From Marsupella aquatica (lineage: Eukaryota; Plantae; Marchantiophyta): DNA of 64,000 nt. Both the position numbers and the translations under genes were made by a program. Under the pieces are notes generated by a model that searched no databases, had not been told where the DNA came from, and saw only the letters and a list, made by a program, of their open reading frames with translations. Within the stretch, counting starts at the first letter, position 1. Each line of letters opens with the position of its first letter. Positions 7,567 to 46,325 of the stretch are shown piece after piece. The stretch is taken from assembly GCA_973895155.1 (NCBI GenBank), contig OZ316891.1:1789324-1853323 (forward strand). The letters run 5' to 3'.

Positions 7567-7578
7567 GCTCTGATACCA
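7567..7578 (-). promoter_or_regulatory. Primer-binding site (tRNA-iMet) of element A
   Basis: GCTCTGATACCA on + equals TGGTATCAGAGC on -, 2 bp from the 5' LTR. Confidence 0.93.
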
Positions 7579-7580
7579 CT

Positions 7581-21713: not shown

Positions 21714-22412
21714 CGGGGGTTGACATCCAATGACTTCGATCACGAGATTGTCGAAGATACAGTGGCATAACAAGCGATAAAACATTGCTACGCTCTCCTT
21801 CCAAACTGATCAGAGATCATCTGAGGCAGGATCCTTCGTATTCACACTGACTTTAAAAAAATACATCAAAGTGGGCTCTTATGGTGAGAACTAGTCATAT
21901 ATATTTAAACACAGTAAACCATAATTTGGTTGGCAGCCGACAACAAGCAGAGTCCGTAGATCTGTCCCAACAACAAAATCTAGACTGAATCATTATGGCG
22001 ACGGCCTATCCCACCATCAAACCAGCATTTCTCTAATGTTCATATATACAAGATGCAAGCTACGGACGCAAAGCTAGATCCTGCAGAACTTTTCGTCGCT
22101 GCTGGGCTGTAGAGCTGTCCCCTTGAATTTGCTATACATCCCTTGAGATAGCCTCCTAGCTTGTGAAACCTGAGAAGCTCAAGACAAAGCTGTCAATGCC
22201 ATTCCTATCTCAAGCGTTCGTGAACAAGTCCCGAATTAGTTGAACGGTCCACAGGCAGACTGCACAAGGGACTTCTACTAAGCATCGCGTACTTTTATAC
22301 CGGATCACGGATCGGGGTTGCGAGCTGTACAGGGGCACTGAATTTTTGGAGAAGTAGTACTGCTACCTTTGTATCAAACAGTGTCACCTTCGTTTCAACA
22401 TTGTATATCTGC

Positions 22413-23850: not shown

Positions 23851-25573
23851 ACAAACACAATTCACGAGAAGTGGATGAATTCTGAGCGAAGGGTCTTTAA
23901 ATAGCTTTAACGCAGAAGGGATCCCTGAGTGCTGTCTGAAGTTTTGACGGGCTTGCTTGACTTTAAATAGGCTACGCAAGGACCCAAACTTCGGGCCGAA
24001 CGTCAGCAGGACACAACTTGTCTGAGCGACCAACGAATGACATGCGGGATGAGCTGAGTGGAGCTCAGGATTGGCCACTATAGTAGTGAGTACTTACATA
24101 GGACGAATGATCAGAGCTGAAATAAGGAACAAAGCATGACGAATGACTAATGATTCCGAGGAACTCAGGAATTGGCCAGCGTGCTGTACTCGCATATGAC
24201 CAGCGACCAGCGCTGAACGTAAGTGACAGCTAGATCATCAGAACCTCAAAAACATTCCTGAGACATTGATAATAGGTCTGGTGGTTTATTGTGGCCATAA
24301 TTGTCAGCAATAGAATTTTCAGACAGCTGGTTAATTTGCTCCACATGACAAGTCAAAGCATGCATATTGGTGTATTTCATCTAGTGATCTAGAGGCGGTA
24401 GTTTTCCCCGGCAAGAGTGTTCCCACAACCACCGGTGGACGTTACGAACATCAGTTTCAAGTTCCTTATCAAACGAAAAATCATATCACTTTGGTTCGCC
24501 ATATTGGAGGGCGAGCCAATGCCCAGGAATCAGGATTGAATAATTATGCACTCTAGAATGTGATCTAGAATAGGAATCTGATTCCATTTTACTCTATAAT
24601 GAGCCATCCAGCCAAAAGGGGGCACAATTAGTTTTCTCAAAACTGGCTTGCATTGTTATTACAATATAGAATCCAATCAAACACTAGTCAGAGGGACCCA
24701 TCTTCCCAAGTCCTTTTCTCAAGGTCCAATTTGCCAGATTGTACCAGCTCAACACCCTATCTTGCACACAGATGTTGAGCAGGAGATGTAGCTGTGTAAA
24801 AGATGACATTGCGTATAAAAATGTGTTTGCTGAAATGATGTCCTTGTTGTCAAACAGAGGTTGTGTTTAGAGTTCTTTGCTCAATAAAGGAGGTTGCATA
24901 AACGATGTTGTAATAAAATTAGACAATGTTGCATAAAATGTGTCTTAGTAAATTAATAAAAAAAATGACTGTTTTGGTAATATGGCCATGATAAAAACCA
25001 CAGGGTCCTTTATCATGGTTTGTGGGTGTGGAAGACTTAGTATGAATGCTCATTTTGGCTGGGTTGTTGTTCCCCAAATGTTATCATCTTAGACAAAGAC
25101 TGACTGTTGTTATTGCTTGCTGTCGGGGATTCTGAAGGTAAGGACATAGGACCCCAAGATGGATGACGGTGGCCATCACATCTGGGAGTCTAAGCATGGT
25201 TGCAAGCACAATATGATGGAGTAGTTTTTTTTTTTTCAAATATTTTCAATGGATAAATATCTATTTTTAGCAAAGAGTAATTTTGGTTTTGGTTTTGCAA
25301 AGTTTTTCAATTGATAAATATTTTCATTTAGATGCAGTATTTTTTAGATTGTTTTGAAATATTTCTATTGAAAGATTAAAATTAGGTTTTCAAGATTTTC
25401 AATTTTGTTTTTTATTTCTGTCCATCATTCTAAATTTTTATTTAATTTCTCTTTTCTGTCTGACTTACTAGCTGTTTTGCACTCAAAGGGCAGGGTGGCT
25501 TTGGGCTCTTGGGCGATATGTCGCCCATCCCAGTACATAGATGTTACATTATGGAGTCTCCGGTTCAGTCAGA

Positions 25574-28500
25574 GCAAAAACCAAGTAGTCCGGGCACATT
25601 TAATTTTCTGTGAGACATCTGGAGAATTGTGCTTGAATACTTTTGCTTCAGATCAGCCTGCAACGGGTTGGACGGTACGTTCCTTCCCCTCACGATATAT
25701 TGTCAACTGTAACGTCGATCACTACCTTGTTATTTCCATCCCATCTCCATCCCAACCAGGATCCCAACAATCACGACAACCACAGTGGATTCGATCTCAA
25801 AACGCGTTTTAGTTCAGTTTCACGGCCATCTCCAAAGCAGGTGTTTTTATTAGACTGCGTTGTCCACTTCATTTGGGGTTCACGGTTTAGGGTCCACCAT
25901 AGTCACGGAGATTCTCATCTATTGCTAAGAATACATTGCCATAATTAACCCCACGACACCAATTATCAAAACATAAGGATTTTTTTCAGATGGTCTAGCT
26001 GTTTCTTACTTCAGCGCTGGTCGCTGGTCATACGTAACTACAATCTGCGATCCCTGAGTTCCGGCCTCAACATATTCATTAGCTGTTATGTAGTCATTCG
26101 TCATTCTCTGTTCCTTATTTCAGCGCTGTCACTTGTCATGTGTAGCTAGGTACTCACTACTATAGTGGCCAATCCTTATCTGCAATCAACTCATCTTGCA
26201 TGTCATTCGTTGGTCCCTCAGACACTCGTATCCTCGTATCCTGCTGGAGTTTGGGTCCTTACGTAGCCTATTTAAGCCAAGCAAGCCCGTCAAAACTTGA
26301 AATAGCAATCGGGAATCCTTCGCTGATCGAGCGTTCAAGCTGTTGAAGATTCTTCCTTCGCTGAGAATTTATCAACTTCTCGTGCATTGTTGTTGCCAAG
26401 CGCCAGCTTAGGGCACTTATCCTTCTCAGCAAATGGAGGATCCTCTGGATTGGGCATCGGATGGAGAAGACAACGTCTACTATGACAGTGAAGACGATGC
26501 AGATGATGGGTGTGACCAACAAGTCGAGATTAACGAGAACAATGAGCACTCAGACTATGAAATTCTAAGTCAGGAGGACATCCAGCAGCGCCAAGAAGAC
26601 GTGGTTTCCAGCGTCACCACTGTCATATCACTCTCGAGGCCTGAAGCTGTTGTTCTTTTGCACCACTTCAATTGGAACTCCAGCAAAGTGAATGAGGAAT
26701 GGTTTGAAGATGAGGAGCGAGTTCGCAAAATTGCAGGGCTTGTCCAATCCCATCCACAACAGGAAGAGGAAAAGAGATCTCTTCCAGACAGGACATGCGA
26801 AATCTGCTACGAGTCGCACGATTCAGAGCAAATGAAGTCGGCATCGTCGTGTAGACATTTCTTCTGCGACACATGCTGGACTGCATACATCCACACCGCC
26901 ATTGAAGACGGCCCAGGCTGTTTGACTCTTCGCTGCGCTCATCCATCCTGCAGCGCTGCTATATTGGAAGACATGGTTCTATCGTTGGTCTCACCAAAGG
27001 ACGGAGCCAAGTATTCAAGATACCGGCTGAGAGCGTTCGTGGAAAACAGGAAGACGACCAAGTGGTGTCCGGCTCCGGGGTGCGAGTATGATGTGGAGTG
27101 TGAGCAACAAGCTAGCTCTTTGTCCATTCTGTGCAAGTGTTCCCACAAGTTTTGCTGGAATTGTTTGCAGGAGGCTCACCGGCCTGCAGATTGTGAGACT
27201 GTTGCAAAGTGGGTTCTGAGATTTAGTTCAGAATCCGAAAACATGAACTGGATTCTGGTCAACTCCAAGGCTTGTCCCAAGTGTAAGCGACCAATAGAAA
27301 AAAATAACGGGTGCATCCATATGACCTGCCAGGCACCCTGCAGGTTCGAATTCTGCTGGCTCTGTCTTGGAGCGTGGACCACTCACAATGAGGAGTCGGG
27401 AGGAAACTACGGATGTAATGGATATGACGATGCCGTGAAACAGGGTCTGCTTGATGAAGTACAAAACAGAAGAAAAATGGCTAAAGACTCGCTAGACCGT
27501 TACACGCATTTCTATGAACGCTGGGTTGCGAATGAATCTTCGAGGAGAAAAGCCCATGAAGATCTGCAGCACGTGCAGTCCGTGATGGTCGACAAGCTCT
27601 ACGACAAGCAATGCCAAACTAAGTCCGAATTGGAATTCTTGAGTAAAGCATGGCTGCAGATCGTTGAGTGTCGACAAGTTCTGAAGTGGACGTATGCACA
27701 TCGCTACTACCTACCTGATCATGATCAAATGTTGGAGTACTCGCAAGCGGAGGCAGAAGCCTTTCTGGAGAGACTCCATGAGTGCGCCGAAAACGAGGTG
27801 CAACAATTTCTTGACGGTGAAGAGAGTCAAACTACCTTCAAAGAGTACCGTATCAAACTTGTACACTTGACGGGTTTAGCACACAAACATTTTGAGCAGT
27901 TTGTACAGATACGTGGAGAATGGAAGCGCGTGAGCAGATGTACAGAAAAAGTTAAAACGAAGTGGACACATTTAGACAAAGTTGGCAGGACTCCTCAAGT
28001 ACCTGGCTCTCAACGCCGATCTGTGATCGATCCGGTATAAATGTGCACAATGCCACAAGTCCATAACGGAGTCTGCCTCTAGACCATCCAACTAATACTG
28101 GGACTTATACACGAACGCTTGGGTTAGGAATTCCACAGCTTTGTCGATCTTGAGCTTCTCAGCTGTCACAAGCAGGCTCACGAGCAGGCTCACGAGATGT
28201 ATAGCAAACTCAAGAGGACGGCCCTATTGGGCAGCGACGAGAAGCTCTGCAGGATCTAGTTTAATTTGCATCCGTAGCCTTGCATCTTGTATAGATGACC
28301 GCTAGAGAACTGCTCCCACTCTGCTTGTTGTAAGCTGCCAAACCAAATTATGGTTTAGAGTATATATGGTTAAATATGAGTAGTTAGAGCCGACACTCAT
28401 GTATGGTTTGAGGGTCGGTATGAACACAAACGATAGTGCCTGAGATGATCTCTGATCAATTCGCGTAGCCATTTTTCGTCGCTTGTTATGACACTGTATC

Positions 28501-28758: not shown

Positions 28759-30797
28759 CGGCTCTAACATGTTTTCACCAGTGGATTAGTGGATTCTAAT
28801 TTCAAGAAGGATAATAGTGAAGACCAATGGGTTTGTGTTGAGTGTGATAATTCCAGTATTTGTAATATTTACTCAGTTAGTTTTCAGAAGTGGATGCTCT
28901 CATCCCATATGTATGGAGCAACATTAAGAATCTGTAGCCAAGTAAGATGTCTTACACTTTACAGACAGGAGTAGTGGATGACTTTTTTAGCTTGTTAAGT
29001 GCAATGTCAACTCTAATGTCTTGTAGTGAGTTTTCGTTGAAATTCTTTGGAGAACTTTGATATGTAGTCCTATATGTAGTTTAAATTAGATGTTTGTGTG
29101 CTAAAGCCCCAATGGCTTTCACACATTGCCAAATATTATATGGCAATATGTTTGTTTAGTGTACTTGTCACTTAATGGTACATTAAATAAAATGTGCATT
29201 TATGATTGAATCTCTTCGCAAAAGATTTTTTTTATAACAAATGAAGGGTGTTTTAAATCTCCAAATCTATCTGATTATAATAACATAGGTAAGTTTTATA
29301 TAGGACTGAAAATTCTGTTCAGAACGAACAAGATACATTTTAATGGTCTTCCAAAATATAACAAGGGGTACATGGGGGGCCTTCAGTCACAGGTATGTCT
29401 CAGTACATTTCCCTTAGTGAGGGCCCAGGGGCTCAACATAAGCACCTTTCACAAAGGTATGAGCCAAAAGTCCATTGACAGGTTTATCGTAACCACCATG
29501 GGCCCTCACTCTATGTATACTAAGTGTACCCCTGTGCCCGGACCCCCCTTGCCTACCCCTTCTTAGTATTTTTTCTTTCATATACATTACCCTTGTTCCA
29601 TGTAAAAAATTAGTTTTTGATAATTTTTTATACCCTTAGGTGACTTATAAAACTGATAAAATCTATATTTGAAAACCCATTGTGGAATTATAATAAGGAA
29701 AACCCAAGATAGGGCTAACATACAAGATCCAAAATGATGCATACAACGCCTAGTGGGCTTAAAATCACTCACACAGTTTAGATATGTTTTACCAGTTTGG
29801 CTAAACTAGTATAGGCAAGACTACGGACAAGACATGGATCGGTAGGGAATAGTGTTGAGCATAGACAACAATCGCAATGGCAAGCCCATGAACCATCTAA
29901 CGCACAAGAGTTGACACAGAGAGATACGTGATTCACCTCCACAGGAACACACATGAGCTTTACTGCACTCTAGGCCGACCGGCCATACCAAGCATCCACA
30001 ACGCAAGCTCTCTCTATCTCTCAACTAGCTCCGTAACAATGAGCCTGAGTTCTCACTCTCCAAGCAAACACCGCTTGGTTATAGAGTGTGCACAGCATGA
30101 CTAACCTAACCAAGTCTGCGACTAAGGTTAGCCTTAACTACGGTACAGTCGTAACTCTAGACCTAAAACACGATTTCGGACCGAACGAGAACTATTTCCT
30201 CTAAACGAGAAGTGTATTTTCATTTTCCGCCGAATCTCGCGAAATCGGCAGTTTTTTTCATCAAAAACACATTTTTGGGGAAATAATGTAATTCGTATCG
30301 GAGTTCGGATTGAAACAACAAATTTAATAATGATCAAAACCAATGAAATTCATGCTAACAAACATTCATATTATCAAGGAACAATTAGATCCGAAAAACT
30401 TTCTCCTCAACCTCATATTCACGCTCTCCGAAGATATATGAAAGGTCTTATCTATAAATCTATATCCATGTTTCGAGCCAAGTGCGATAACTGTATCGGA
30501 CTCCGGATTTGAGCCATGAAAGCTCCGACCCAATCTCAGTTTTATCAGTTTTTGGATATTTACCAAAAATATTTTACATCACAGTCGATAAGAATTACTG
30601 CACGGTTCGTCAAACTTACCTTGCAGTTACCTCCACAATTGACCAGTTACCTCCGCAAGTGACCATAGTCAACATGCCATTCTTTCAACAGCAATGCGTA
30701 GTCCGATAAAATTATCGCAAAAAATATGGGCGACAAAAATACTAGTCGACAATACTAAGATCCTTCGGTTCATCGGTTAAATTTCAAAATTCCTATC

Positions 30798-31000
30798 CAT
30801 ATGAAGAAAACTCTTCGCAATACCAACATCAGATAAATTTATCGCTTCAATTTCAGAATTGCAACTTCCATATGAAGGAACCACTTTTGCAATACCAACA
30901 TCAGATAAATTTATCGCTTCAATTTTAAATTGCAACTTCCATATGAAGGAACCACTTTTGCAATACCAACATCAGATAAATTTATCGCTTCAATTTCAAA
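30798..31000. repeat. About 72-bp tandem repeat, 3 copies, each carrying AGATAAATTTATCG, upstream of the transposase promoter
   Basis: CATATGAAG...GCAATACCAACATCAGATAAATTTATCGCTTCAATTT repeated; motifs at 30831, 30903 and 30974. Confidence 0.88.
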
Positions 31001-31092
31001 ACTATATAATTTTGCCACGATGCACTTGTGAGAATGAAATTGGAAATCCAAGAAATATACCCTTTTCTGCTATTTTGTCGTTTAGGGTGACA

Positions 31093-31144
31093 GCCAATCA
31101 AAAGTGGACACATGGGCCAACCCCTCAACAGACACTATAAAAGG
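31093..31144 (+). promoter_or_regulatory. Putative transposase promoter (CCAAT box and TATA box)
   Basis: GCCAATCA near 31093 and CTATAAAAGG near 31135, about 120 bp upstream of ATG 31257. Confidence 0.5.
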
Positions 31145-31256
31145 GCCACCGCTGATAAGTTTTTGGCGTCATTATCGAGAGTAGAGTTTTGGGAGTTGTG
31201 TTCTTGGAGCAACATTCTGTCCGTTGAGCCTTTCGTTTTCCCTGATTGCGGGAGGA

Positions 31257-33750
31257 ATGCAAAGCCCCATAGTGTCTCGGATAGCCATGTCTCAATCAGA
31301 CACAGATTCACCTTCCAGTTCAGTTGAATCCTCTTCTAATCTTGTCGCTCGCTATTTGCCAAGTCGCATACTTAAAGCTCTACCTCTCTCACAGCAAATA
31401 GTGCCCGAAATCTCTGACTCAGATTCTGATGCAAGTTCTGGTCCTGAGCCCAGTGCTTACTATGTGTCGCCTAGTAAACCTGAGAAGCGTCGTCTCTTGA
31501 GCGTTCCATCGCCAAGAAATGAGAAACTTTCAATCCCAGGTTTAGGTCCGAGACGTCGCTTCAGGCCATCTAGCCCGGGTTATGGAGAGGGTATCCAACG
31601 ACCGATATGCGTATCGCAGTCGACATTCAAGTCGCCACATTCAACACAAGTTCAACGACGGATCTTTCAATCTCCGGGTGAGGATCGGGACACAGAAATA
31701 CAAAGACTGATACGGCGATCGGTCTTTGCATTGCCTGGACTGGATGTGCGAGCAAGCGAGGGAATCGGACTGCGAAGTCCAGACTCGGCCCTTTCTCGAA
31801 TGGTCCGTGGGAATCGTGGTGAACAAGTGCTCAATTTTCCAGTAGCTCGCGGAGTCATTGGGACTGCACGTGCGAATCCAGAATCTCCAAGTTCTCAAGG
31901 GCGGACTATCATTGGTTCCAGGCTCCAAGTATCGAGGAGAGGTCTTAGTGGCGTTCGGGTTATGTATAGAGAGCCACGGAGTCCAATTGTGTTTTCAGAT
32001 GAGTCGAGTGCATCGGAGGACGAAGATGAGGAAGGAGATAGAGAATCCGATATAATAGCACAAGTTGTGTCTGAATGTTTAGAAGGAGCTGTCGAAGAGA
32101 ATAGTTATAGTCGTCTATTCAGTGCCCCTCTAAATGCGTCAAGGAGATCTGTAGAGGATGGTAGCTCAGCAGAGAGTGATGCATCTATTCGCGAGGCACC
32201 TGAAGGACCTGAAAATGCCAATGTTATGAACGGATTTCAGGCTGTAGAGAAGTCAAATGAGCCTAGTAAAAAAGATAGGGACCGAATTACTAGGAAAGAC
32301 AATGTGATAAATGACAAATTGAATAGAAACAAAATGAGAGAAATTCATAAGTATTCGTGTTGTGATAATTACTGTCTGAGGAATTTGGGTTTGCTAGCCG
32401 TGACGAAACAACGCACTTATTACTATGGGCTATCCTACCCAAAGAAGAACGTCCTTCTAAGAGGATGTGTGAAGGGTGGGCATGCTGGTGCAAGTGGTTA
32501 CTCAGTTAGCGGTAGATCCTTTTGTCGGAGTGGTTTTAAGAAATTATTTTCACTAGGAAATAATCATCTCCAAAAAATCTCGTAGAACATGTTTTCTCGG
32601 ATACAGATCGATACAGTTTGTCGAGAAAAATCACCCGCACATCTTGGTCTCGTCCAATGGCTGGATGATTTTTTTTCCACAAATGTCGAGAGTCTCCCCA
32701 ACAAGGATATCTTTCATTTACCTGACAATTGGACAAAAACAGAAGTTTTTGATGCCTTCCAGTCCGAAACTCTAATGCGCCAAGAACAAGGCATGACATA
32801 TTCGTGGTTTGTTCGCATTTGGAACAAGAAGTTTCCTCGCGTGCGCACCCCCAAAAGGAGCCGTTTCTCCACCTGCGCCCCATGTACTGAATCAAAGCAG
32901 TCCGCGACAAGGCAACACTCGAAGCAGAAAAGAGTAAGTTTCTAAACCTGTGTGTTACTCCCGATAATTTTATCGGGTTGAGTATTCATGTGCTTCTTCT
33001 TTGGCCATGTGAGTGAATATATCGTTTGAACAGTTTGAATACGAACCTGATAAATTTATCGCTGTCACAGTTTTTCATTACGGTCTTGTGTTTGAATACT
33101 GAACCCGATAAATTTATCGTTGTCACGGTTTGTCATTACGGTTTCGTGTTTGAATACTGAACCCGATAAATTTATCGCTGTCAGGGTTCAACATTGCGGT
33201 TATCATGTTTTGTCCTAAACATTTTTATTATTGTAGGAAAATTCTCAACATTGCTAAACGAGCATCGGAAGGGACAAGCAATCGAGAGGGAGAAGTTAGC
33301 AAAGCACCGGAGCAAATGTTACAAGAGTCCGGAGAAATATTTGGGCATCTGTATTGATGGAATGGATCAAAAGAAGACAGAGTTACCTCATTTCATTCGG
33401 TGTCCAAAGAATATGGATGAAAAGTATTTCATCCCCGTACACGTAGTGGGTTGTTTGATCTTCAACAAATAATTAAGTTCAAATGTTTTTTTGAACTATC
33501 CAAATATTAACAATGATAGCAACTTGACCATCCACGTTATCCAGCATATTCTGAATACCTGGGAAGGTCTGCTCCCTCCAGTGCTTTACCTCCAGTGCTT
33601 TACCTCCAGCTTGATAACACAGCTCTGGAAAACAAGAATAAATATCTTATGGCATATTTGAATATGTTGGTGAAGATAGGTGTTTTCCATAAAATAAAGG
33701 TTGGTTTCCTATTGGTGGGGCACACCCATGATCAAATTGATCAAATGTTT
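31257..33750 (+). pseudogene. Sola-like DDD transposase, 2 exons, disrupted and 3'-truncated
   Basis: Long S/P/R-rich N-terminus; CCDNYC; WNKKFPRVRTPKRSRFSTCAPC; catalytic-like motifs ICIDGMDQ, LYLQLDN...ENKN and FLLVGHTHDQIDQMF. GT-AG intron 32934-33236. Lesions: TAG at 32583, frameshift near 32890, TAA at 33470, 14-bp duplication near 33595, truncation near 33750. Confidence 0.85.
33035..33183. repeat. About 58-bp tandem repeat, 3 copies, in the transposase intron, each carrying the GATAAATTTATCG palindrome
   Basis: TTTGAATAC(T)GAACC(C/T)GATAAATTTATCG(C/T)TGTCA; motifs at 33048, 33106 and 33164. Confidence 0.88.
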
Positions 33751-35283
33751 ACCCAAGCTTCCAGCTCACCATATATTTGCTTCCCGTTCATTTTAAACAA
33801 CTCGGACTTTGCCCGAGCACCATGATTCCCTCCAATAATTCTATACTTCCATACCCTTGACTTCAGGATGTCCCAATCTGCGGTTGTGGGACAATCCTTC
33901 GGATCCACACACAGCACGAACGGGGCACTGAAGTTGGTGGGGTTTTTCATGAGAAGTATCTTGATATTTTCCACATGCAATCTATTCACTGGTCTAATCA
34001 AAGTTGACAAATCCCCCTCCTCATCAAATATGAGATTGTCGACATGCAGAAGCACAGTTGTCCTTTGCACCCTTCGTTGCATCAGAAGACTGAGCTCTGC
34101 CTTGATCGCGTCCGTCTCATACATCGAAAGAGCCGTCTCCTCCTCCTGATCAGCCTACAAAAGCGTTGCAAATTCAATTAAGGAAAGAAACTGCGAGATT
34201 TTTATCGGAGTTTGCATTTGTTCAACATAACTCCACAATCCGCAATTCAGGAAATAAACAGCGAGATTTTTATTGGATTTCGTATTTGTTAAACAGTACA
34301 ACGACATAGTACTTACCAATGGCGCCGCAGGAACCGCGACTGGAACTGATGGAATTGACGGAGCTCTATCTACTTCTGCAGCCACCGTCTCAGTCTAGCC
34401 AGTCCTCTTCCTCTTTGTGCTAAGTCCAGAACCAGATGGCCCGGATCCCTCGGATCCTTTACTTTCGCTTGGTTTAACGGATGGTCCTCGACGGTTGCCC
34501 CGGCCTCTCCCACTACCGCCAGTTTCCTGGCTCTTCTTCCCACCGTCAGAGGTTCCCGCGGCATCTCCCCTGCCGCTACCTCTCCCTTTCCCTCTTCCAC
34601 TTCCCGAAACCCGACTAGAAGTTGTAGGTTCGTCCACGTCAATATGTGTAGAGGATTGCAATGGTTCTTTCCGCCCCGACATTTTATCGGCATTAGAACC
34701 ACCGCTACCACTTGAACCTGGTTTCTTGAAAACAATTTTGCGGACAGGTTTGAACTCTTCACCCACGTCTTTCGTACTCTGCGTTCACCCTTGGAAGCAT
34801 GATGGCATCACAATCTTGCACATACTAGCCGATCCAAGCCGAACCCATAACATTCATCTCTCTTGCTGCCCGAACTTCCGCAACAAGGGGATCTTCTGGA
34901 TAACTGTCCATCAATTTCTCATCAAAGTTATCGAGAGTAACAATGAGAGATGTGAAACCCTTGTGCCCACACATTGTCAAGAAACTAAGGCCCTCTGTCA
35001 ACACTTTTCCCTCCCCGTGGCCAACCATGAACTCGACGACGGCAACAGCAATGACAGGGCCATACGAAACATTAACCTTCGCCGATTTTTGCAACTGGAC
35101 CCAAAGGATTGGGGTAGCACAATCTTCAAAACCCGTGGACTGTAATCTGGCGTCACGGAAGTACCATGACTTCTTGATACACTTGACCTCTTCACAAATG
35201 TCTTCACTCGTCCAAATTGCATTGGTGAGGCTTGTCATGAGACTTTCTGCCTCAGCAGATCCACTCTTTCCACTAGCAGCCAT
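33741..35283 (-). pseudogene. Transposon cargo gene with a ParB/Sulfiredoxin-like domain, 3'-truncated
   Basis: ATG 35283 (MAASGKSG..); Gly/Ser/Arg-rich linker at 34395-34766; in-frame phase-0 GT-AG intron 34316-34155. The last exon reads LHVDNL..IRPVN..HVENIK..APFVLCV..YRIIGGNHGARAKSEL..LEAWV, matching the ParB/Srx core pattern. Stops at 34825 and 34395, plus a frameshift near 34780 if the first ORF belongs to the same gene. Confidence 0.7.
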
Positions 35284-35481
35284 GGCAAAGTCTGCAAATA
35301 AACAAATTCCAATGCAAAGAGCGATAAAATTATCGCCGCCAATCTCACAGCACATGTGGACACGACATCTCATCACACAAGGACAAAGAGACCCGCAATG
35401 CAAATGACCGATAAAATTATCGCAAAAGTGAGCCTTCTTTAAATTGACGGCCGAGTGTACAGGTCGAAGAATCAGCTACAG

Positions 35482-35523
35482 AACCCTAAATCCAAAACCT
35501 TAACCCCTAAACCTAAACCCTAA
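35482..35523. repeat. Degenerate plant telomeric/telo-box tract inside the transposon
   Basis: AACCCTAAATCCAAAACCTTAACCCCTAAACCTAAACCCTAA. Confidence 0.65.
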
Positions 35524-36233
35524 TCATAGTTGAACCTCGCCAGAGCAAAGCGTTCGATCCGCTTCTTGGGCCATTGGGGAATATGAGTGACGCGATGATC
35601 ATAAGCCCACAGCCAATGGAAATCAACTTCACCAGTCTCAGGATTCACTACTGCTACTGAATACCGGCGTGACAGAATGTCACAACAAGCATTTGTGCAG
35701 CATGGACAGATCTCACCATTGGCAAGGACGTTTGTCCACAGGCAACTTACATAGATCAAGTTAAAGAGAGCACAGACCGGCTGGGGGGGGAGTTGACGAA
35801 TCTTGTATGAATATAGTTTCCCACCAGTGTCAATAAAAAACTCGGTGGCAAGAGGATTGTCCAGCTCGTCAATCACATCCTGAATCTCATCGAATGCTCT
35901 ACGTCTGTTGTCGGCATAGAATTCTGGCTCATAAGCAGGATTGCCCTTCACAACATCACAGCAGTGGAGTATAAAACGTCTTACTACACCGGTTTTCAGA
36001 AAGAGTAGGATAACTCTTCTAGAAAATCCAACATATCTATCCCACCGAATATAAATTTCTCCCCCTACCTGATCTACGTAGAAGTGAAATGCGTTATGGA
36101 AAAACGGTTTTACTACCAGCCTGCATATCTTTAAAATTAGTGACTCATCCAGCCTCCTTAGCTGGTCCAGCATGGCTCCATTCCCCCATTCTGGAGGATC
36201 CAGGTAGGGTACAAAAATGCGTCGCTCGAGCAT
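35520..36233 (-). CDS. Transposon cargo ORF, 237 aa, possible divergent split F-box-like protein
   Basis: Uninterrupted ATG-started ORF. LRRLDESLILKICRLV and LFNLIYVSCLW resemble the two halves of an F-box motif separated by an insertion; Cys cluster CPCCTNACC. Confidence 0.55.
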   Translation of the reverse strand: MLERRIFVPYLDPPEWGNGAMLDQLRRLDESLILKICRLVVKPFFHNAFHFYVDQVGGEIYIRWDRYVGFSRRVILLFLKTGVVRRFILHCCDVVKGNPAYEPEFYADNRRRAFDEIQDVIDELDNPLATEFFIDTGGKLYSYKIRQLPPQPVCALFNLIYVSCLWTNVLANGEICPCCTNACCDILSRRYSVAVVNPETGEVDFHWLWAYDHRVTHIPQWPKKRIERFALARFNYD

Positions 36234-36548
36234 GGCCTGATCACCGAATAGAAATCAGGAATAAATTTTGGAGAACATACTAATTACAATTCTACAAGTT
36301 TCATCCAACTTTACAGTATCTTGTATAACGGGCTGTGAAGCCAATGCACTTGTCAGCTAATCGTCCGAAGAGGCGCAAACAAATACACTCTGGACCACAC
36401 AACCCGAAGTCAGGGGAGGCAGAGTCAATTACATTCAAAGTGTTTCTTTACAAGCTCTTCTCGAGCAAACCTTAGAGCACCCAAAATCGACTAGAGGAAT
36501 GAGGAGTGCGATAAATTTATCGGATGTTCGCAGCAATGCCTCATCCAC

Positions 36549-37097
36549 TCAGACTCGTCCATGCCATGCAAGAATTGTCCGCTTCCCGCTTTCTCCAAGA
36601 TTTATCCAAACTCTAAGAAACTGATCTAACTGCTCATACGAAAAGCACCCAAGCATATCTATGGGAGGGAGGAAATGAGTTTCCTCTCGGAAGACCCTAG
36701 CAATATGTATGTTTGAGAGAAGGTCGGCATTAGGAATGCTTGCGAGCATTTTGTTTATGTCATTGATCTCACGGACTGCATATTTCAATAGCGCCCAAAA
36801 TTGTGTACCAACAACAAGATGGTTCCATTTCTTTGAGGTGGCTCCAAGACAAATGATTGTTCTCATTCGAGTCAGTCGTTCTTCTAGTAGAAGTTTTAGG
36901 TCAAGGCCAAGGTGTTCATCTTGTGTGCAAGACAAGGCTAGGAGGGGCCAAATGTGAGATTCAACGAGTTGATCGGGAAGTCCATTCAACAAACTTCTGC
37001 ATTCCACACCGGGCACTTTTTCTCGAATATATTTCCTACGCTCGTGGGCTAAAACGGATCCCATCTTTGCAACGATTAGATTCTCCGACGCAACCAT
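36549..37097 (-). CDS. Transposon cargo ORF, 182 aa, F-box-like protein
   Basis: LLNGLPDQLVESHIWPLL...IICLGATSKKWNHLV follows the plant F-box pattern (LIPGLPD..L...I...L / L..VSK.W..LV). Intact ORF. Confidence 0.68.
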   Translation of the reverse strand: MVASENLIVAKMGSVLAHERRKYIREKVPGVECRSLLNGLPDQLVESHIWPLLALSCTQDEHLGLDLKLLLEERLTRMRTIICLGATSKKWNHLVVGTQFWALLKYAVREINDINKMLASIPNADLLSNIHIARVFREETHFLPPIDMLGCFSYEQLDQFLRVWINLGESGKRTILAWHGRV

Positions 37098-37291
37098 GAA
37101 GTAGAGCTACCAAAACCACCAATAAAAATACCTTCAATCACCAGGTGTAACCGAACACATCCACAGTACCAACCCTGCACGACAGTTTAACGATTAGGAC
37201 TTGTGACGTATTATATTCGCTGCGCAAGGGTAGGACTTGTTTATTTAAATATGTCCTTACAAGACGCGCCTCAATGCAAAGGTCGAAACAC

Positions 37292-37621
37292 TCATCGTGA
37301 AAGGTTCACCCAAGGGTCTTCGTTCCAAATCTTACAACAGAAGTGAGCCTGTTTGTGGTACTTGTTGTCAAGACGACGACAACAATAGTTACAAGAAAAC
37401 TCCAAAGAATGTAAACACGCCGTTAACATCAACCTCGAACGAATTGGAACTCCTGCATCATTCATTCCGCATAATTCAATGCAGAGAGGATTCTGCCTAT
37501 CTCCAGGATCAGTACCACCCATCCACAATGCTCCTATACCGATGGGGAGAACTTTGAGTCGCACGAGTCTCTTGTACAACCGGCGTGCACGTTTGACACA
37601 ATTTTCAAGGAAGACAGCCAT
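37292..37621 (-). CDS. Transposon cargo ORF, 109 aa, small basic Cys/His-rich protein of unknown function
   Basis: ATG-started ORF co-oriented with the other cargo genes; CLH..FSCNYCC..HFCC. A TATA-like CCTATATAAAG lies on the minus strand near 38213-38223. Confidence 0.4.
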   Translation of the reverse strand: MAVFLENCVKRARRLYKRLVRLKVLPIGIGALWMGGTDPGDRQNPLCIELCGMNDAGVPIRSRLMLTACLHSLEFSCNYCCRRLDNKYHKQAHFCCKIWNEDPWVNLSR

Positions 37622-37755
37622 TTGTCACAATACCTGTTGTCCACAGAGTGCAATCGACCTTCCGTTGTGCCTCCTAAACCCGGCAACACTGCGACATCAG
37701 AGATGAAGATGAGTCTCCAAACAAAACAAAGGAAAATGATTCTCATAGGAGGATG

Positions 37756-38086
37756 CGATAAGTTTATCGCACTCCGCATTCGAATTGAAAATATGACTTC
37801 CTCAGACACCTAAGCCCTGAATTCAATCTTTCACAAAAATACAACTCCGATAAATTTATCGGATTCTCAATTACTCCTCTTTCCATGAAAGGAATGAAGA
37901 CTCCGATAAATTTATCAGAATGAAGGCAACACCTCTCTAAACACTGGATCAAATGATTGCAACAGAGGAATGCAGAATGCGATAAATTTATCGCAGTCCG
38001 CTCAGATCTGGACATTTTACACTAAATGACTAGTTAGTCTTACATGGAGAACTTGAACAGGAATGGCTGTTCCGATAAATTTATCG
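37756..38086. repeat. Cluster of five CGATAAATTTATCG-type palindromes upstream of the cargo genes
   Basis: Motifs at 37756, 37848, 37904, 37980 and 38073; TGCGATAAATTTATCGCA at 37978-37995 is a perfect 18-bp palindrome. Confidence 0.9.
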
Positions 38087-41000
38087 GGTTTTTGGTAGAA
38101 AGAGTCGAATCGCTTGGGAGGAATGTAAGACTCGATGGGAGTTTGGTATTCGCTCTCAGTCAGGAGATATTTGCTCTGGCGAAAGCAAACGTTTTATGGG
38201 CAGCCCGCTCCTCTTTATATAGGAGACGCTCTACACCATGGTTAATTTCCCCTTAACCATGGTTAAGTTTCCCCTTTACTTGGATTAGTGCGTGGTCGTT
38301 CCTGGATTACGCGGTTCGGACCAAGTTACTCGTAGTTCAAACTTTTTCACTGACGGAATGTAAAACCCGATGCACGTATCGCTCCTTGCATCCCGCGGCG
38401 ATGCAATGGAGGAAAGTGGCGTTTCGGAGAGTTTTTGCCAGTTTTATTGGTCATTGCATTGCCTTAGAAAAAAAACGGGATCGGGCTAAACGAGAACTCC
38501 GACACACTTCTCGATCGGTCCGAAATCGTGTTCTAAGAGTAAATCCTAACAAATAGGTGGGCAGTGGCAACATCCCCACAAGCATGGGCACTGCCTGCAC
38601 CGAGCGTGCACTCTACATTGGAGAGACTATAATTACAAACGTGATTACAAACCAGATAATCAAGCTAAGATATGGGTCTAGGTACTAATAGAGTGATTCA
38701 CTCGGGACACTATGTTCCAATGATTGAGACCTTGCCACATGGCCCCTTATACAATGACACGTGTTACATACATTATAGGACCCCTTCGGCTAAGATAATA
38801 TGCCACGGTTTTGGAAATACCCTTCTTCCTTATAAACCCAAATTTGTATAAAGTTGAGGGTTGGTTGGTCCTAATTGAATTATAATTATTAGCCGAAAAT
38901 GGATTAAAAATACCCTACAAGTGGGCACACGTGTTTCTGGGATTACGTAAGCTGAGGGCCCACGGCGTAGCCATCAACGACTTCGGATAGATGCAATGTT
39001 CAAGTCTGCAATGGGGATGCCGACTGAGCATTTAATCTATAACCACTGCGTGTTTTCTCTCCAAAACATGTACTCAAATCTTGGTCACTTACATCAGTTA
39101 TCTTATAAGGATTTTCACCGACATTGGGGAGTCCAAAGGTGAAAGCAAAATATGTCGGGTCTCTCTGGAATTCTACAGGATCCCAATCCTTTGTACTCTT
39201 TGAGTCGCTCTTCCAACTTGACCCACACGGTTCTACTAAAACAGCAGGCTTGGCACCCCCAACAATTACAGGTACATCTCTAACTTGCGGCGCTCTACAT
39301 GGTCTATTGCATTAGACACATTTTCCAAAAGTCCATCGAGGTCAAGAGGCACAACACCCATCGTAACTTAGTCTGATTGAGGACACATACAAATGCAACA
39401 GTCTGACAAAGTAAAGTTGCATGGCTACAAATCTAACTTCAACATTCAATGGAAAAGGTGACCAAGAAATTGGAAAAGGAGCAAAAGCTATTCACCCTCG
39501 CCTCAAATCAATCCCCCAAATTTAGCCACCAAATCCTTGAACAAAGTCTTGCACTCTTCGACCGCGCCTCGCCTCAAACCTCCTTGATTGTCAGTAGTGG
39601 ATTCCGGCTAATCAAATGTGATGCAAATGAGATGGAAAATTGCTGTCCGTGGAAGGGTCAAGCTGGTGCGCCTCACCTCCAAATGCGGGATTCAAAATCA
39701 TCTAAGTGCTAGGCAAGAACGACGAGAGAATCCAGAAGTGTCCAAGTGAGAGCAGTTTGCGCGCAGTGACCTTCAACAGAGCCCAAAAGAGACAAACAAA
39801 TTAAATGTGGCTTCGCCAACACACATCAAGTACCCCACCACGCCGGGAAAGCCGTGTCAAAGGATGTGACTCCTGTGAAGGACATTGTCACTTGCTTATC
39901 CAACGATTAATACGTGCAAACCATACTTTTCCTTGCTTAAACCGTTGGTATCGTATTATGGGGTCGTGGAGGGACGCTATTTGGAGGATTTCCACACCTA
40001 AGGATGAGTATATTTGATTTCGCTCCCGGAAGTGTACTTTTTGATCAAGTCTACCGACTGGTCTCTCCGTTTTTGATCAAGTCCAAGGGACTGGTCCTAC
40101 CATCTACAACTCATGCCCATCGGGTGAGTGCTGTCACCACCCCCCTCTCATGGGCAAGCATACAAACGTTTACAACAAGATTTGAACACTAGTGACAAGG
40201 GCAAATGTTTCCACAACGAAACCGACCACATGCACTAGGGGAGGAAAACAAACAACACAAGCAACAACAAGTGACACACAAAATATTGGAACCTCAAGTC
40301 AAATCCATATCTCTTGGTGTTTCCCGTAACACATGCAAGGACAACCCGGCCTCATGCCGTCTGCCCAACTCCTGCCTCCCGGGGACAAGTGCTACGTTCT
40401 CCACCTCACTACTCTGGCTTGAACTTCTCCTAATTGGTGCGCTACTCACAAAAACTACTCAAAAGCATCCAAGCACTACGCTGAGTTCCCCCCTGTACCT
40501 GCTCTTGGAAGCCTTCATAAACTCCCGCCTGGCCTCCTCACTCACGGTGGCAGCCTCGTGTCCCAGTAGCACTCCGCCCTGGCACTCACGCTCCTTCAAG
40601 GCACGCGGCCCTATGCAAGGCGCGCCTTCTCCCTCGCGGCTCCCCCTGCTTTCTCACTCGCGGGGATTCTTTTTTTTGGGGGGGGGGGATTTAACCCCTC
40701 CCCGTTTTTCCCCTTTTTAACCCCCTTCTGGTGTGCTGCACTATGCCTCCCCTGGCGCTCCTCGACAGTCTCCCTCGCGACTCCCCCAGTCTCCCTGGCA
40801 GTCCCATTGGCCCCGGTGCTTGTGTCTTGCCAGGTACAATGTTAGGATTTACTCTTAGGTCTAGAGTTACGACTGTACCATAGTTAAGGCTAACCTTAGT
40901 CACAGACTTAGTTAGGTTAGTCATGCTAGGCACACTTTATAACCAAACGGTGTTTGCTTGGAGAGGTGGAACTCAGGCTCATTGTGACGGAGCTAGTTGA

Positions 41001-41169
41001 GAGATAGAGAGAGCTTGTATTGTGGATGCTTGGTATGGCCGGTCGGTCTAGAGTGTAGTAAAGCTCATGTGTGTTCCCGTGGACGTAGCCTCATGTGGAG
41101 GTGAACCACATATCTCTTGGTGTCAACTATTGTGCGTTGCATGGTTCATGGGCTTGCCGTTGCGATCGT

Positions 41170-42698
41170 TGTCGTGGGGATTCTTTGTTTAGTAAGTTCC
41201 TCCTAAGTATAGCTTAGTAGTATAGGATAGTAGTTTAAATTCTCGCATATGCAGTCTATAGTGTGCATGCTACAGTGCACAACCTACAGTGTGCATGCTA
41301 CAGTACACGGTCTACAGTATGCATGCTATATTGTTCGATCTACAGTGTGCATGCTACAATGCAAGACCTACAATGTGCATGCTACAATGTACAATCTACA
41401 GTGTGCATGCTACAGTGTACATGCTACAGTGTACGATCTACAGTGTGCATGCTACGGTGTACGATCTACAGTGTGCATGTTACAGTGTACGATCTACAGT
41501 ATGCATGCTATAGTGTACGATCTACAGTGTGCATGCTACAGTGTACTGTCTACAGTTGCTCCACTCACGTAACTACAGTACTAGCACACTTACTTGCCTT
41601 GGATGTGTGACACATGGCTTCCATCCATGTGCCATGCTTGATCCGTGTGCTTGAGGTGTGAGCACTATAAGTAAAGAGGAGAGGGGCTCTCTCCCCTCAC
41701 TCCCCATTTTTCATCAACTAAGTTGTGAAGTCTTAAAAATCCATTGGACTTGATGATCTCTTCTATGAATATAACCCTTATGAAGTAGACCCACTCATGC
41801 ACTCTTGCTTAGAGCTTCGGCTCGGCCAGAGATATTTTGTATGAGTCGGACCTTCAAAAAGTGTTTTCATTTGATAGGAGATGGTTATTAAGTTCTAAAG
41901 AGTTGGAAAGTGCTCAACAATGCCTTGACATCATATGCTTTCTTTTGGGTGAAATCCTTATGAAGTAGACCCACTCATGCACTCTTGCTTAGAGCTTCGG
42001 CTCGGCCAAAGGTATTTTGTATGAGTTGGACCTTCAGATAGTATTTTCATTCAAAAGAAGATCAACCTATTAAGATAAACGTCTGCATGTATATACTTAG
42101 AGTTAACTCAATGCATGATATTTGTTTGAAATGGATGATCTTTTTGTTGAATGATTCTATCTCTTGTCATTAGAATGAAAATTAGTTGGATGGAATATTT
42201 GATAGTACGATAATGCCCAGACTAGTACCTATTCTTCCTCTCCCTAATCCTTTCCTTATTAGAATTCATGTACTCCAAAAAGAGATAATGCGCCAGCATA
42301 TGACTTTTCACTTTGGAGAAGCATTTGCAACTGCGGTATTAAATTCAATAGAGCCAATTGTATACCCTTATGTAGTTTACGGGCAGGATTGGGCTTGCAC
42401 AATTTTTATCTTGTATTGAGATGGATCTCAACAAACCTCCCTCCGATGAGCCTCCCGTTTCTTTCTCGTTGGGAGATATTCGTTTTGTAACTCAACCCAA
42501 GGTAGCTGCCAAGGAGGCAATAGTCCGTAGGTATGGAGAAAAGGGTTATGATGTTGTGCTTTCATCCACGGAACCGTTCCTTGTGGTGTCTGCTACCCAA
42601 TCTAGAATAGTAATCATGATCTTAACTTAAGTTCTCTCTTGACACTAGTAGCCATAGGCCCGGTGCTTCCTCAAGAACCACATTTTTCCCCCCAGACA
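41170..42698. mobile_element. 1.53-kb non-coding TGTC...GACA insertion (solo LTR of another family, or a non-autonomous TIR element)
   Basis: Termini TGTCGTGGGGA and TCCCCCCAGACA; TSD TCGT/TTGT inside the element B LTR. Internal minisatellite, a TATA-like CTATAAGTA near 41665, and an about 95-bp direct repeat at 41776 and 41956. Confidence 0.72.
41249..41555. repeat. Minisatellite, about 28-bp unit built from two related 14-mers
   Basis: CTACAGTGTGCATG-CTACAGTGTACGAT repeated about 11 times with variants. Confidence 0.9.
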
Positions 42699-42913
42699 TT
42701 GTCGTCTATTCTCAACAATTGGTATCAGAGCATGCTTGGGAGGTGATGAGGTTTTTTTGTGATGGTTTTCCAGTGTTTATTGTCGGTGTTGCATTTAGAG
42801 TTTTGTCGCACGAAACTCGAATGTGTGTGGCTGAGAGGATAGATTAGTGAGAGGGCTTTCTATCGGTGTATAGAACTCATTGGTTGGTATCCGTTGTATG
42901 GAGGAATTGGAGG

Positions 42914-45198
42914 TTGAGCCAATCAGGTTTACCACAAGAATTTTGGGTAGAAGCTGTCAATACCGCAGCTTATTTGGTAAATCTTTCTCCTTCTAGTGCT
43001 ATCAATTTCAAAATGTCGTTTGAGATGCGCTATAAGCGGCCAGCAGACTATCATGGCTTGGTAGTTTTTGGAAGTGATGCATATGCTCTCACACCGAAGC
43101 AGAATAGGACCAAGTTGGATCCTACCTCCAAGAAATATGTTTTTCTTGGGTACCAAAGTGGTGTGAAAGCTTATAGGCTATGGAATCCTATCGCCTGTAA
43201 GCTCGTTGTCAGTAGGGATGTTTCCTTGAATGAATCCAGATTATTGAAGGAGGGGAAGAATACTCAGGTCTCCCATACTGATAAAGGAAAATCTCCTATC
43301 CCGGATCTTGTTGAGGGGGAGATTGGTCATGAGGTGCATGACCGGAGAGAAGGAGTTGCTCCAATTATGGAGTTGGTTCCTGTGCCAGAGGAACCAAAGG
43401 AGTTTGTTGATGCTGGTGAGCAGCAAGTGGATGCTGCTGAGCTTCAAATTGTACCAGCACACGCAAATCAACCGGAGTCATCGGCTAGAAGAACATCTAG
43501 TCGCATTGTACGCGCTCCACCAAGGTATGGACAGTGGGTTGATTCATCTCAGTTGTAAGAGGAGGATTTTGTTACTGATGATGAGGGTGATGCGTTGATA
43601 CTTGAAGAAGGGGAACTTTCTTCATTTCATGAGGAAAGTGCTTCTAAGGAGAAGCAGGAGTGGACTGCAGCAATGCAAACAAAGATGCAGTCACTAAAGG
43701 ACAACAAAACTTGGGAGCTTGTCAAGTTGCCTGAGGGACAGCAAGTGGTGGACAGCAAGTGGATATACAAGCTAAAGGATCAATCCATGGTAGGTGGATC
43801 GAAGGTCTACAATGCTAGGTTGGTAGCCAAGGGATTTACACAGGAAAAAGGTGTTGATTACAATGAGGTCTTCTCACCGGTTGCTAAGTACTCAACAATA
43901 CTGCTATTGTGTGTGCTTGTTCTTATGTTTGGTCTGCTGCTAGATCAGATGGATGTTGTCACAACTTTCCTCTATGACACCTTGGAAGAGGTGATTTTCA
44001 TGAGACAACCGCTAGGTTTTGTGAAGAAAGGGCAAGAGGATTTGGTTTGCAGATTGTTGAGATCCTTGTACGGGTTGAAGCAGTCACCAAGGCAGTGGAA
44101 TAAATAGTTTGATGATTGGATTCATGCACAAGGCTTTCACAGGAGTGTGTTTGACCCATGTGTGTATCTTAAACCGGTGAAGAATGTTGTCTTTGGGTTC
44201 ATTGTTTTAGTGCTTTATGTGGATGACATCCTTATTGCTGCCAAGGATAGATCTGAGATTGTTAAGCTCAAGGCACTGCTAAGTGCAAAGTTTAAGATGA
44301 AGGACTTAGGGCCAGCTAAGAGGATTTTGGGTATGGAGATCACTAGGGACTTGAAGACTGGCAAGCTATGGTTGACGCAAAGCAGTTATGCGAGGAAGGT
44401 AATTGCAAGGTTCAACATGGCGGATAGCAAGCCAGTAAGTACCCCGTTGGCTCCACACTTCAAATTGTCACCAGCTTTCTGTCCTACGGATGACATAGAG
44501 AAGGGGTTGATGTCAAAGGTTCCGTATGACAAGGCAGTGGGGAGTCTCATGTATTTGATGACTTGCACTAGACCTGATCTTGCCATGGCTATGGGCAAGG
44601 TGAGTAGGTACATGTCAAATCCGGGGAAGGTACACTGGGAAGCAATGAAGTGGATTATTTGGTATTTGAAGGTACCGTGGATCATGGTCTATTGTTTGAT
44701 GCACATGCTGATAATGCTAGATCATTGATGAGCTATGTAGATGCTGACTATGCACAAGATCTGGATCGGAGGAGGTCAACAACAGGTTATGTGTTCACAC
44801 TGGGAGGTGGATGCATAAGTTGGTGGTCTACTTTGCAGAAATGTATTGCTCAGTCTATTACAGAAGCGAAGTATGTTGCAGCAGCGGAAGCAGCAAAGGA
44901 AGCGATTTGGTTGGATAGACTTATCACTGAGATGGGATTGCCACACGGGAATATGAAGCTCCATTGTGATAGTCAAAGTGCACTCCACCTTGCTGTGAAC
45001 CAGGTGATGGACAGCAGAGTGAAGCACATCGACGTTAGGTACCATTTTATCAGGCAAGTTGTGTTTGATAATATGTTTGAGCTAGTTAAGATTGATGGTA
45101 AACTCAACCCGGCTGACGCTTTTACCAAAGTGATTCCTTTGGAGAGTTTTTCTAGGCACCGTGATGTGTTGTAGGTTTTGCAATTGCCTCACAAGTAG
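42914..45198 (+). pseudogene. Copia pol remnant (IN C-terminus, RT, RNase H) with stops and frameshifts
   Basis: LSQSGLPQEFWVEAVNTA, ARLVAKGFTQEKGVDY, LYVDD and DSQSALHL; closely similar to element A pol. Confidence 0.93.
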
Positions 45199-46325
45199 GG
45201 TTACTTAACAGTTGTGTAGATACTGAGATATGCTCTTAGTTTTGATCTACTCTCGTATAAAGAGGGAAAACCCACTTTGGTTTTTCTTTCCCGAACTTCC
45301 CGTTGAGCAATCATATTGGTAGCAGTCTTTATCCTCCCCTAGACCAGAGTCAAGGGGGAGATTGTTAGGATTTACTCTTAGGTCTAGAGTTACAACTGTA
45401 CCGTAGTTAAGGCTAACCTTAGTCGTAGACTTAGTTAGGTTAGTCATGCTGGGCACACTCTATAACCAAGCGGTGTTTTCTTGGAGAGGTGGAACTCAGA
45501 CTCATTGTGACGGAGCTAGTTGAGAGATAGAGAGAGCTTGCATTGTGGATGCTTGGTAGGGCCGGTCGGCCTAGAGTGCAGTAAAGCTCATGTGTGTTCC
45601 CGTGGACGTAGCCTCATGTGGAGATGAACCACGTATCTCTCGGTGTCAACTATTGTGTGTTGGATGGTTCATGGGCTTGCCATCGCGATCGTCGTCTATG
45701 CTCAACATCCAGCACGCCTCCCTATGCAAGGGGACTTGCCACTCCTTGGGGAATTTAAATTCCCCACCTTTTCCATCGGCTTGCACCCCGGCTGCGGCTG
45801 CTCGCCCCGGTTACCTGCTCACCCCGGCTACCCTTGGTACCCTCCCGGGAGGGTATAATGTGACTCCCCCGCTGCGCCCCTTTTGGGGAATTTAAACCCC
45901 CCCGCGCCTGGGCGCCTCCCGGCTGCTGCCGCGCCTCGACCTGGCTCACGCCCCGGCTTCCCCTGCTTACTCGCGGAGCTCCCTCCTTAGCCCCCAAGAT
46001 TCCACATGTCAAGCCCTAGGGGTGCCCCATATAGCCCCAGCAGTCATTTAGTGAGGAGGCTTGCCATCCCGGGCTCCACCTGGTCCCACTCAATTCTTCC
46101 CCTCCTAAGCACTAGAACTTAAAGTTTGACTCCTTAGACCTTGCTATTGGGGTCTCAAAAAGAAGAAGAAAAAAAAGAGGGAATAAGGCCTAAGGGAAAC
46201 GGGGTGTCCGATTAGACCGGCCCTAGTTTCAAGGTCCCAACATCCTTGCTTGTTGGGAAGTCGTAGGCATCCGAACTATTAGGATATAAAAGTACGTAGA
46301 GACCTCCGGGGCATAGCAACCGATA

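Follow-up and report, generated by a model that had tools for sequence, protein, structure and literature searches.

We report a decayed Sola1-like DNA transposon in a 64,000-nucleotide stretch (hereafter the window) of the genome of the liverwort Marsupella aquatica (GenBank assembly GCA_973895155.1, contig OZ316891.1, positions 1,789,324 to 1,853,323 of the forward strand). The element carries accessory genes, one of them ParB-like, and a series of 14-bp palindromic sites, CGATAAATTTATCG. In related loci the ParB-like gene continues into an exon which, judging by its motifs and a structural model, is a predicted beta-class N6A/N4C DNA methyltransferase; the core of the palindrome varies by family and, in the sequences compared, appears to track the protein clade. 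Considering the ParB-methylase gene of the relatives together with the family-specific variants of the palindrome, we are inclined to believe that a dimer with ParB and helix-turn-helix (HTH) domains binds the palindrome of its own family and brings the fused methylase with it, so that the element gains N6-methyladenine or N4-methylcytosine (N6mA/N4mC); the element would probably benefit by escaping host silencing or by competing with it.

The boundaries of the element (coordinates of all features are in Table 1) are given by terminal inverted repeats (TIRs) in which 24 of 25 bases agree, and by CTAA at both outer edges. It lies in a solo long terminal repeat (LTR), of which two other copies in the window (45362-45707 and 40840-41173) are uninterrupted at the insertion point and have one CTAA each; hence the CTAA duplication at the element is real. 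The original prediction, a reading of the letters of the window, had placed the repeats, the target site duplication (TSD) and the unbroken LTR copies in this way, and we agree with it. Eight public sequencing runs (five organism labels) contain the window wholly or partly, four of them sharing 0.49-0.56 of its words; none is an RNA run. Contigs were compared for six of the eight, and a low-depth contig of one run (X5) follows the element up to 38532 and then passes into other letters. The solo LTR is itself embedded in a further repeat (29600-29852 and 38552-39100), and in contigs of the runs X2 and X3 the LTR or the element is missing, which gives three nesting levels.

Sola elements are described as having a DDD transposase, a 4-bp TSD and TIRs of 11-1124 bp (PMC10741241; here and below, published work is cited from the accessible parts of the sources). 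All three features are found here: three acidic motifs in the second transposase exon, CTAA on both sides with a single CTAA at the empty site, and 25-bp TIRs. The transposase on the plus strand, already proposed in the original prediction, is supported by a match of exon 2 to Pfam DUF7869 (E 1e-28), which we take to be the marker domain of Sola transposases, and by the motifs IDGMDQ, QLDN and GHTHDQID in the order of the DDD type. Its intron has GT-AG borders. The reading frame is broken by stop codons, frameshifts and a 14-bp duplication, which rules out an intact autonomous element. The RNase H profiles of the Sola groups, taken from the supplement of PMC5751038, were compared visually and in part: by eye, and without a hidden Markov model score, positions 5-30 and 108-124 of the Sola1 profile agree with the transposase in the first-Asp motif, in the FLxxGH(S/T) motif and in the spacing of the two, while the parts examined of Sola3 (the start) and Sola2 (the end) do not fit the transposase motifs. 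The supplement of PMC3985635, as far as it could be read, does not contain the string DGMDQ. Over 33087-33720 the runs X5 and X8 contain high-depth contigs of more distant Sola-like transposases, limited to the catalytic exon; these are other Sola families in other organisms.

Thousands of variant contigs over the element in each of the runs X2, X3 and X4, and 435 in X1, indicate that the family is multi-copy and rule out a single-copy oddity; contig depth was not taken as copy number. The studied copy is internally deleted at 33751, which the first reading of the window overlooked. At this point the dominant X1 contig departs from the window sequence and carries on the transposase frame; on the other side, contigs of X1 and X4 carry on the ParB-like frame, and in the alignment the ParB-like homologues extend beyond the cut. 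Several lesions of the studied copy (at 33470, 33575, 34396 and 34766, also 34827) are missing from the majority contigs. In X1 the longest contigs are of about equal depth (493-664) over the transposase and over each of the four cargo genes; some of the X1 contigs bridge gene ends to the adjoining spacers, and none covers two whole genes.

The original prediction listed four co-oriented genes on the minus strand, including a ParB/Srx-like one. The four open reading frames (ORFs) are present; the ParB-like piece, however, is the remnant of a longer gene. Its exon 1 codes for an N-terminal domain of unknown type and a low-complexity linker, and is broken; exon 2 codes for a ParB/Srx-type domain truncated before the HTH and the methyltransferase that are found in relatives. 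A search of 1.84 billion representatives with the ParB-like exon gave 38 homologues at E <= 0.001; 23 sequences were aligned, with P0018 (a spurious repeat protein) and other short fragments left out. The only named homologues belong to the liverwort Riccia sorocarpa, and the conserved motif of the alignment is GGNH[GS]A. PDB sequence searches gave no useful match. The homologue P0007 is 59% identical to the exon of the window, and its predicted model (predicted local distance difference test score, pLDDT, 83) is matched by Foldseek to Noc/ParB (E 5.5e-5 to 6e-4), over their DNA-binding domain, and more weakly to sulfiredoxin. Through this model the accessory protein has the ParB-like domain reported for other transposon accessory proteins, and the structural check suggested with the original prediction came out in favor of the ParB fold. 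An HTH_ParB match in one related locus, L002, is below the cut-off (E 8.6e-4).

A metagenome scan yielded five related loci (L001-L005) out of 483 candidate stretches, and three of them (L001, L002, L005) share the N-terminal domain of the window at 31-34% identity. Across the loci the proportion of synonymous differences (pS) is 0.69-1.00, i.e., saturated, against 0.08-0.48 for non-synonymous ones (pN), which implies long purifying selection on the cargo protein. The proposal of a cargo-carrying, multi-copy Sola-like family is upheld: the cargo is common to many copies, and its amino acids are kept under saturated synonymous sites. No long fused homologue was found among 4452 candidates, which covered only 1211-3455 aa and are weak evidence. 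Four further proteins (P0022, P0047, P0031, P0035) form a second, more distant ParB-like clade with GGNHS and another N-terminal domain; Riccia sorocarpa holds several proteins of this clade, annotated as host hypothetical proteins. In the atlas, the ParB-like exon (33744-34154, minus strand) has as neighbours fungal clusters in which 31% of members carry DUF3723 (score 0.93), and phage clusters with ParB_N. DUF3723 is Starship cargo, and this suggests that a single ParB-like lineage has turned up repeatedly in giant mobile elements of eukaryotes.

ParB and methyltransferase parts in one gene are absent from the studied copy, where this region is deleted, and are seen in three of the five loci and in one Riccia protein. 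In L001, L002 and L003 the ParB-like exon is followed by an intron-like spacer and then by an exon matching PF01555 (E 3e-7 to 5e-8); the contigs of L004 and L005 stop before this position. KAL3677677.1 of Riccia sorocarpa is a single predicted protein in which the C-terminal part encoded by the ParB gene is joined to the methylase. The methylase exon has 29 homologues and is 60-75% identical among the loci. In 20 of 20 aligned proteins the D, P and Y of motif IV, D[VI]PY, are invariant, and so are the G-x-G glycines of motif I, which binds S-adenosylmethionine (SAM). The order of the motifs, catalytic motif IV ahead of SAM-binding motif I, and the PF01555 fold are those of the beta class; the predicted model (pLDDT 67) matches CcrM, M.BceJIV, N4CMT, RsrI and PvuII (E 1e-12 to 4e-10). 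An annotated prokaryotic methylase, a distant relative, has DLPY at the position of motif IV. We infer that the deleted middle of the window's own family held a methyltransferase as well. Close prokaryotic or viral relatives did not emerge: GTDB gave one weak match among 50 candidate stretches, none of 34 candidate stretches in IMG/VR was a close relative, phage and plasmid matches are 23-43% identical over a part of the methylase only, and the ParB part had no match in phages. These relatives are distant, and no donor can be named.

The palindromic sites are confined to the element. With at most one mismatch, all 16 matches to CGATAAATTTATCG in the window are inside it and none is in the other 55.6 kb; with at most two mismatches, this applies to all 17. 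The count of about 16 copies in non-coding parts, given originally, was accurate. The sites occupy the 5' region of the element, the transposase intron and the spacers among the cargo genes. The general form of the site, CGA-N8-TCG, occurs 18 times in the element against 1.8 expected, and 16 of the 18 are outside the coding intervals, which make up 62% of the element. The observed and expected numbers are 12 and 1.5 in L001, 22 and 1.2 in L002, 8 and 1.0 in L003, and 4 and 0.4 in L005; L004, which is mostly coding, has none (0.04 expected). Among the controls, an unrelated bacterial locus has 2 (4.4 expected) and the rest of the window 10 (5.2 expected), a mild excess. Spacings of CGA and TCG from 4 to 13 other than 8 are not enriched. 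The cores are specific: the window motif occurs 17 times in the element and never in the five loci, and the L002 motif occurs 20 times, in L002 only. The site cores of L001, L003 and L005 differ by one or two bases and cross-match, and the ParB cores of this trio are 82-89% identical; the L002 and window cores are 5-7 bases away from the trio and from each other, do not cross-match, and ParB-core identity outside the trio is 47-70%.

Three ORFs make up the other cargo. The 237-aa ORF has three homologues, at 47-67% identity and in Logan only. The original prediction of two F-box genes has weak support: the 182-aa ORF has no Pfam match at E 0.05, its F-box-like resemblance being sub-threshold (E 0.061), and neither the 237-aa ORF nor any of its three homologues matches a Pfam F-box. 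The two ORFs could not be aligned to each other by BLASTP. L005 has a homologue of the 109-aa ORF (25% identity, pairwise E 3e-5) that precedes the ParB gene in the same orientation; the locus has no room between these two genes for the two middle ORFs, which look like family-specific cargo. The proposal that the accessory genes and the motif form a self-targeting module thus stands in part: the motif has the behaviour of a cis site specific to its family, but a part in the module for the supposed F-box genes, missing between the small gene and the ParB gene in L005, is not supported. A recent capture of neighbouring host genes is rejected, as the element has no match elsewhere in the window and its homologues are in similarly built loci. 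In L003 a convergent ORF (2994-3539, minus strand) has a beta-barrel-like C-terminal pattern; its atlas neighbours are clusters from Streptophyta, Haptophyta and Mollusca, one with DUF7869 in 20% of members, and it may be the C-terminus of a transposase.

Table 1. Features of the element and of its insertion site (positions in the window)
Feature	Position	Strand	Remarks
Sola1-like DNA transposon (decayed copy with internal deletion)	30167..38532		8,366 bp; TIRs, TSD, empty site; other copies run on
Left TSD, CTAA	30163..30166		4 bp; right copy 38533-38536
Left TIR	30167..30191	+	25 bp; 24/25 identical to right TIR
Right TIR	38508..38532	-	25 bp; mate of left TIR
Solo LTR hosting the element, TG..CA	29853..38551	+	Halves 29853-30166 and 38537-38551; 5-bp TSD AATAG on both sides
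Transposase gene	31257..33751	+	Exon 1 31257-32933, intron 32934-33236, exon 2 33237-33751; 3' end lost
Deletion junction, cut transposase fused to cut ParB-like gene	33751		Loose ends of contigs; homologues extend past the cut
ParB-like accessory gene, 5' part	33751..35283	-	Exon 1 35283-34317, intron 34316-34155, exon 2 34154-33751
237-aa cargo ORF, second "F-box" of the original prediction	35520..36233	-	Three homologues; no Pfam family
182-aa cargo ORF, weak F-box-like resemblance	36549..37097	-	Pfam F-box-like E 0.061, below cut-off
109-aa Cys-rich cargo ORF	37292..37621	-	Homologue in L005
14-bp palindromic sites CGATAAATTTATCG	30485..38086		Untranslated regions, introns, intergenic DNA; partly in tandem units of 58 and 71 bp
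Starts of CGATAAATTTATCG	30704, 30831, 30903, 30974, 32962, 33048, 33106, 33164, 35322, 35409, 36509, 37756, 37848, 37904, 37980, 38073		
Starts of weaker CGATAAATTTATCG sites	30485, 34194		

In the mechanism that we favor, the protein would act as a dimer whose HTH, following the ParB domain, reads the variable core of CGA-N8-TCG, the fused methylase would be recruited to the element by this binding at the family site, and the element DNA would receive N6mA or N4mC as the presumed mark, which may serve anti-silencing or self-recognition. Several observations weigh against it. The studied copy has 71 differences from the X1 majority in 5.2 kb, of which 41 have A/T where most copies have G/C and 5 are the reverse; such decay is expected if the copy was methylated by the host and deaminated, and it speaks against strong protection from silencing. 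The ratio of observed to expected CpG (0.81) does not set the element apart from one Copia stretch and two genes of the window (0.77-0.79), and it too counts against strong protection. There are just three site classes, so that shared ancestry alone could yield the correspondence between sites and proteins. The methylase exon of the window's own family was not seen in the 30 letters visible past the junction. The contigs of L001-L005 are too short to reveal TIRs, and their link to a transposase is a single atlas lead, for L003 (score 0.91), of low recognition value.

A wider version of the same mechanism we hold tentatively and with considerable doubt. The host plant lineage uses silencing by 5-methylcytosine (5mC); the protein, with a ParB-HTH reader and an active N6A/N4C methylase, would be the epigenetic writer of a widespread transposon lineage of non-seed plants. 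It would co-evolve with the family-specific 14-bp site, put a mark of bacterial type on the copies of its own lineage and so block host 5mC silencing. Land plants would then have a second anti-silencing system besides VANC and unrelated to it, from which domesticated 4mC (N4mC) methylases of plants may have come.

Among the other explanations, the one that fares best, although we consider it unlikely, is that the protein binds the sites while its methyltransferase domain lacks activity and serves as a scaffold or reader, so that chromatin would be affected only through binding, in the manner of VANC. Motif IV reads D[VI]PY in place of DPPY or SPPY, adenine methylase domains borne by DIRS elements are reported as probably inactive (PMC4738411), and VANC proteins do work via short amplified motifs in non-coding DNA (PMC5735166). 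However, the catalytic D, P and Y and the G-x-G have stayed invariant throughout the methylase alignment despite saturated synonymous divergence, and DLPY is present in an annotated prokaryotic enzyme.

Slightly less credible is a second explanation: CGA-N8-TCG is the methylase's own split target, amplified by the element as a methylation-controlled switch for its promoters and introns, while the ParB domain does no more than load or dimerise the enzyme. Beta-class enzymes with split palindromic targets are known; all families have the same outer CGA...TCG, with methylases that are 60-75% identical, and the sites cluster ahead of each gene and in introns. Yet a conserved target alone leaves the family-specific 8-bp core unexplained, and the fold match covers the DNA-binding domain of Noc/ParB. 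This explanation overlaps with the mechanism that we favor, and both may be true together.

We think it quite improbable that the sites are transposase-binding or neutral tandem repeats and that the cargo genes merely ride along, with functions that have nothing to do with them. Many sites do lie within 58-72 bp tandem units, they are dense near both ends of the element too, and the two middle ORFs are not common to L005; but there are also sites well away from the ends, within introns and in the spacers of the cargo genes, the sites are unlike the TIR, their spacing is kept fixed across four distant loci, and the cargo proteins are conserved under saturated synonymous divergence (dS). A parS-like role in segregation or drive, in which the ParB domain clamps the sites and biases inheritance or the retention of excised circles, is very improbable: the best structural matches are indeed the CTP-clamp proteins Noc and ParB and the palindromes are parS-like in form, but neither the element nor the related loci have a ParA-like gene, the conserved motif is GGNH[GS]A instead of GxxR, the consensus of CTPase ParBs, and the fused methylase is left unexplained.

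The original prediction took the system for a candidate undescribed one, which is not supported. A ParB-like gene with an N4C/N6A methylase has been published for a Sola1 element of the brown alga Ectocarpus, Sola1-1_Ec32 (PMC12477816, Genome Biol 2025); it codes for 1104 aa opposite the transposase, and the authors propose that the element binds and modifies itself, with reference to cases in green and red algae (Iyer 2011). The element of the window resembles it in its Sola1-like character, in having the accessory gene and the transposase on opposite strands (the ParB-like gene is so placed inside the element of the window) and in the combination of a ParB-like domain with an N4C/N6A methyltransferase, known here from relatives. 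They differ in the host (a brown alga and a land plant), in length (21.5 kb and at least 8.4 kb) and in the three further cargo ORFs added here. The main text of that paper, in its accessible form, does not contain "palindrom", whereas here there is a family-specific CGA-N8-TCG series; the two are likened by the described architecture, not by protein sequence.

Other known systems are more remote. In the Plavaka elements of the red alga Bostrychia, PAG3 is ParB-like and stands beside inverted-repeat arrays (bioRxiv 10.1101/2025.02.11.637652); PAG2/PAG3 share with our case a ParB-like domain near inverted repeats, a PF01555 methylase in the same elements and proposed self-binding, but the transposase is of the EnSpm/Plavaka type, the ParB domain is fused to a 2-oxoglutarate oxygenase, and the methylase is in a separate gene with SET. 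VANDAL elements of Arabidopsis and their VANC (PMC5735166) likewise pair a protein encoded by the transposon with short motifs that are peculiar to each family and have been multiplied in non-coding DNA by tandem repeats; they are Mutator-like, VANC is neither ParB nor a methylase, and its function is proven, while here it is only proposed. N4CMT of rotifers (PMC8885841) and MpDN4MT1 of Marchantia (bioRxiv 10.1101/2021.02.12.428880) have the same permuted PF01555 fold of bacterial origin; these, however, are host genes with SPPY and a chromodomain or no extra domain, whereas the relatives described here have D[VI]PY, are fused to ParB and are borne by repeats. C5 methylases are known in retrotransposons (PMC5890265). 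Our literature search, with most subscription literature, Repbase and the algal supplements outside its scope, found no ParB-methylase transposon of a land plant and no family-specific site series. The overall design is already known; what is new is its lineage in land plants, together with the series of family-specific sites and the additional cargo. Long Sola entries of mosses could already contain the ParB-methylase gene unannotated.

Self-marking by ParB-methylase transposons has so far been a proposal from algal genomes. The present case supplies material for its test: several diverged families, defined 14-bp sites and a methylase with conserved catalytic residues, so that swaps of proteins and sites between families would be a direct test of specificity. 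If true, the proposal would mean that a programmable system for marking DNA exists in nature and that land plants have a new route of anti-silencing.

The Copia elements, RBR-type E3 genes and UbiA gene of the window, the Riccia homologues and the Streptophyta clusters of the atlas fit a land plant, probably a non-seed one. The remainder of the window contains four intronless copies of an ARIADNE-like RBR E3 ligase (UBA, RING, IBR) at 22024-23861, 26412-28037, 48307-50204 and 60729-62641; they are 87-97% identical, in both orientations, with one broken, and look like a local retrocopy or segmental expansion. An intronless piece of a UbiA-family prenyltransferase at 19384-20142 (minus strand), presumably homogentisate solanesyltransferase-like, is possibly a retrocopy. 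Three decayed Copia-type retrotransposons are at 1054-7922, 40840-45707 and 55900-59700; the first two have LTRs of the same family as the solo LTR hosting the element, and those of the first are 97% identical.

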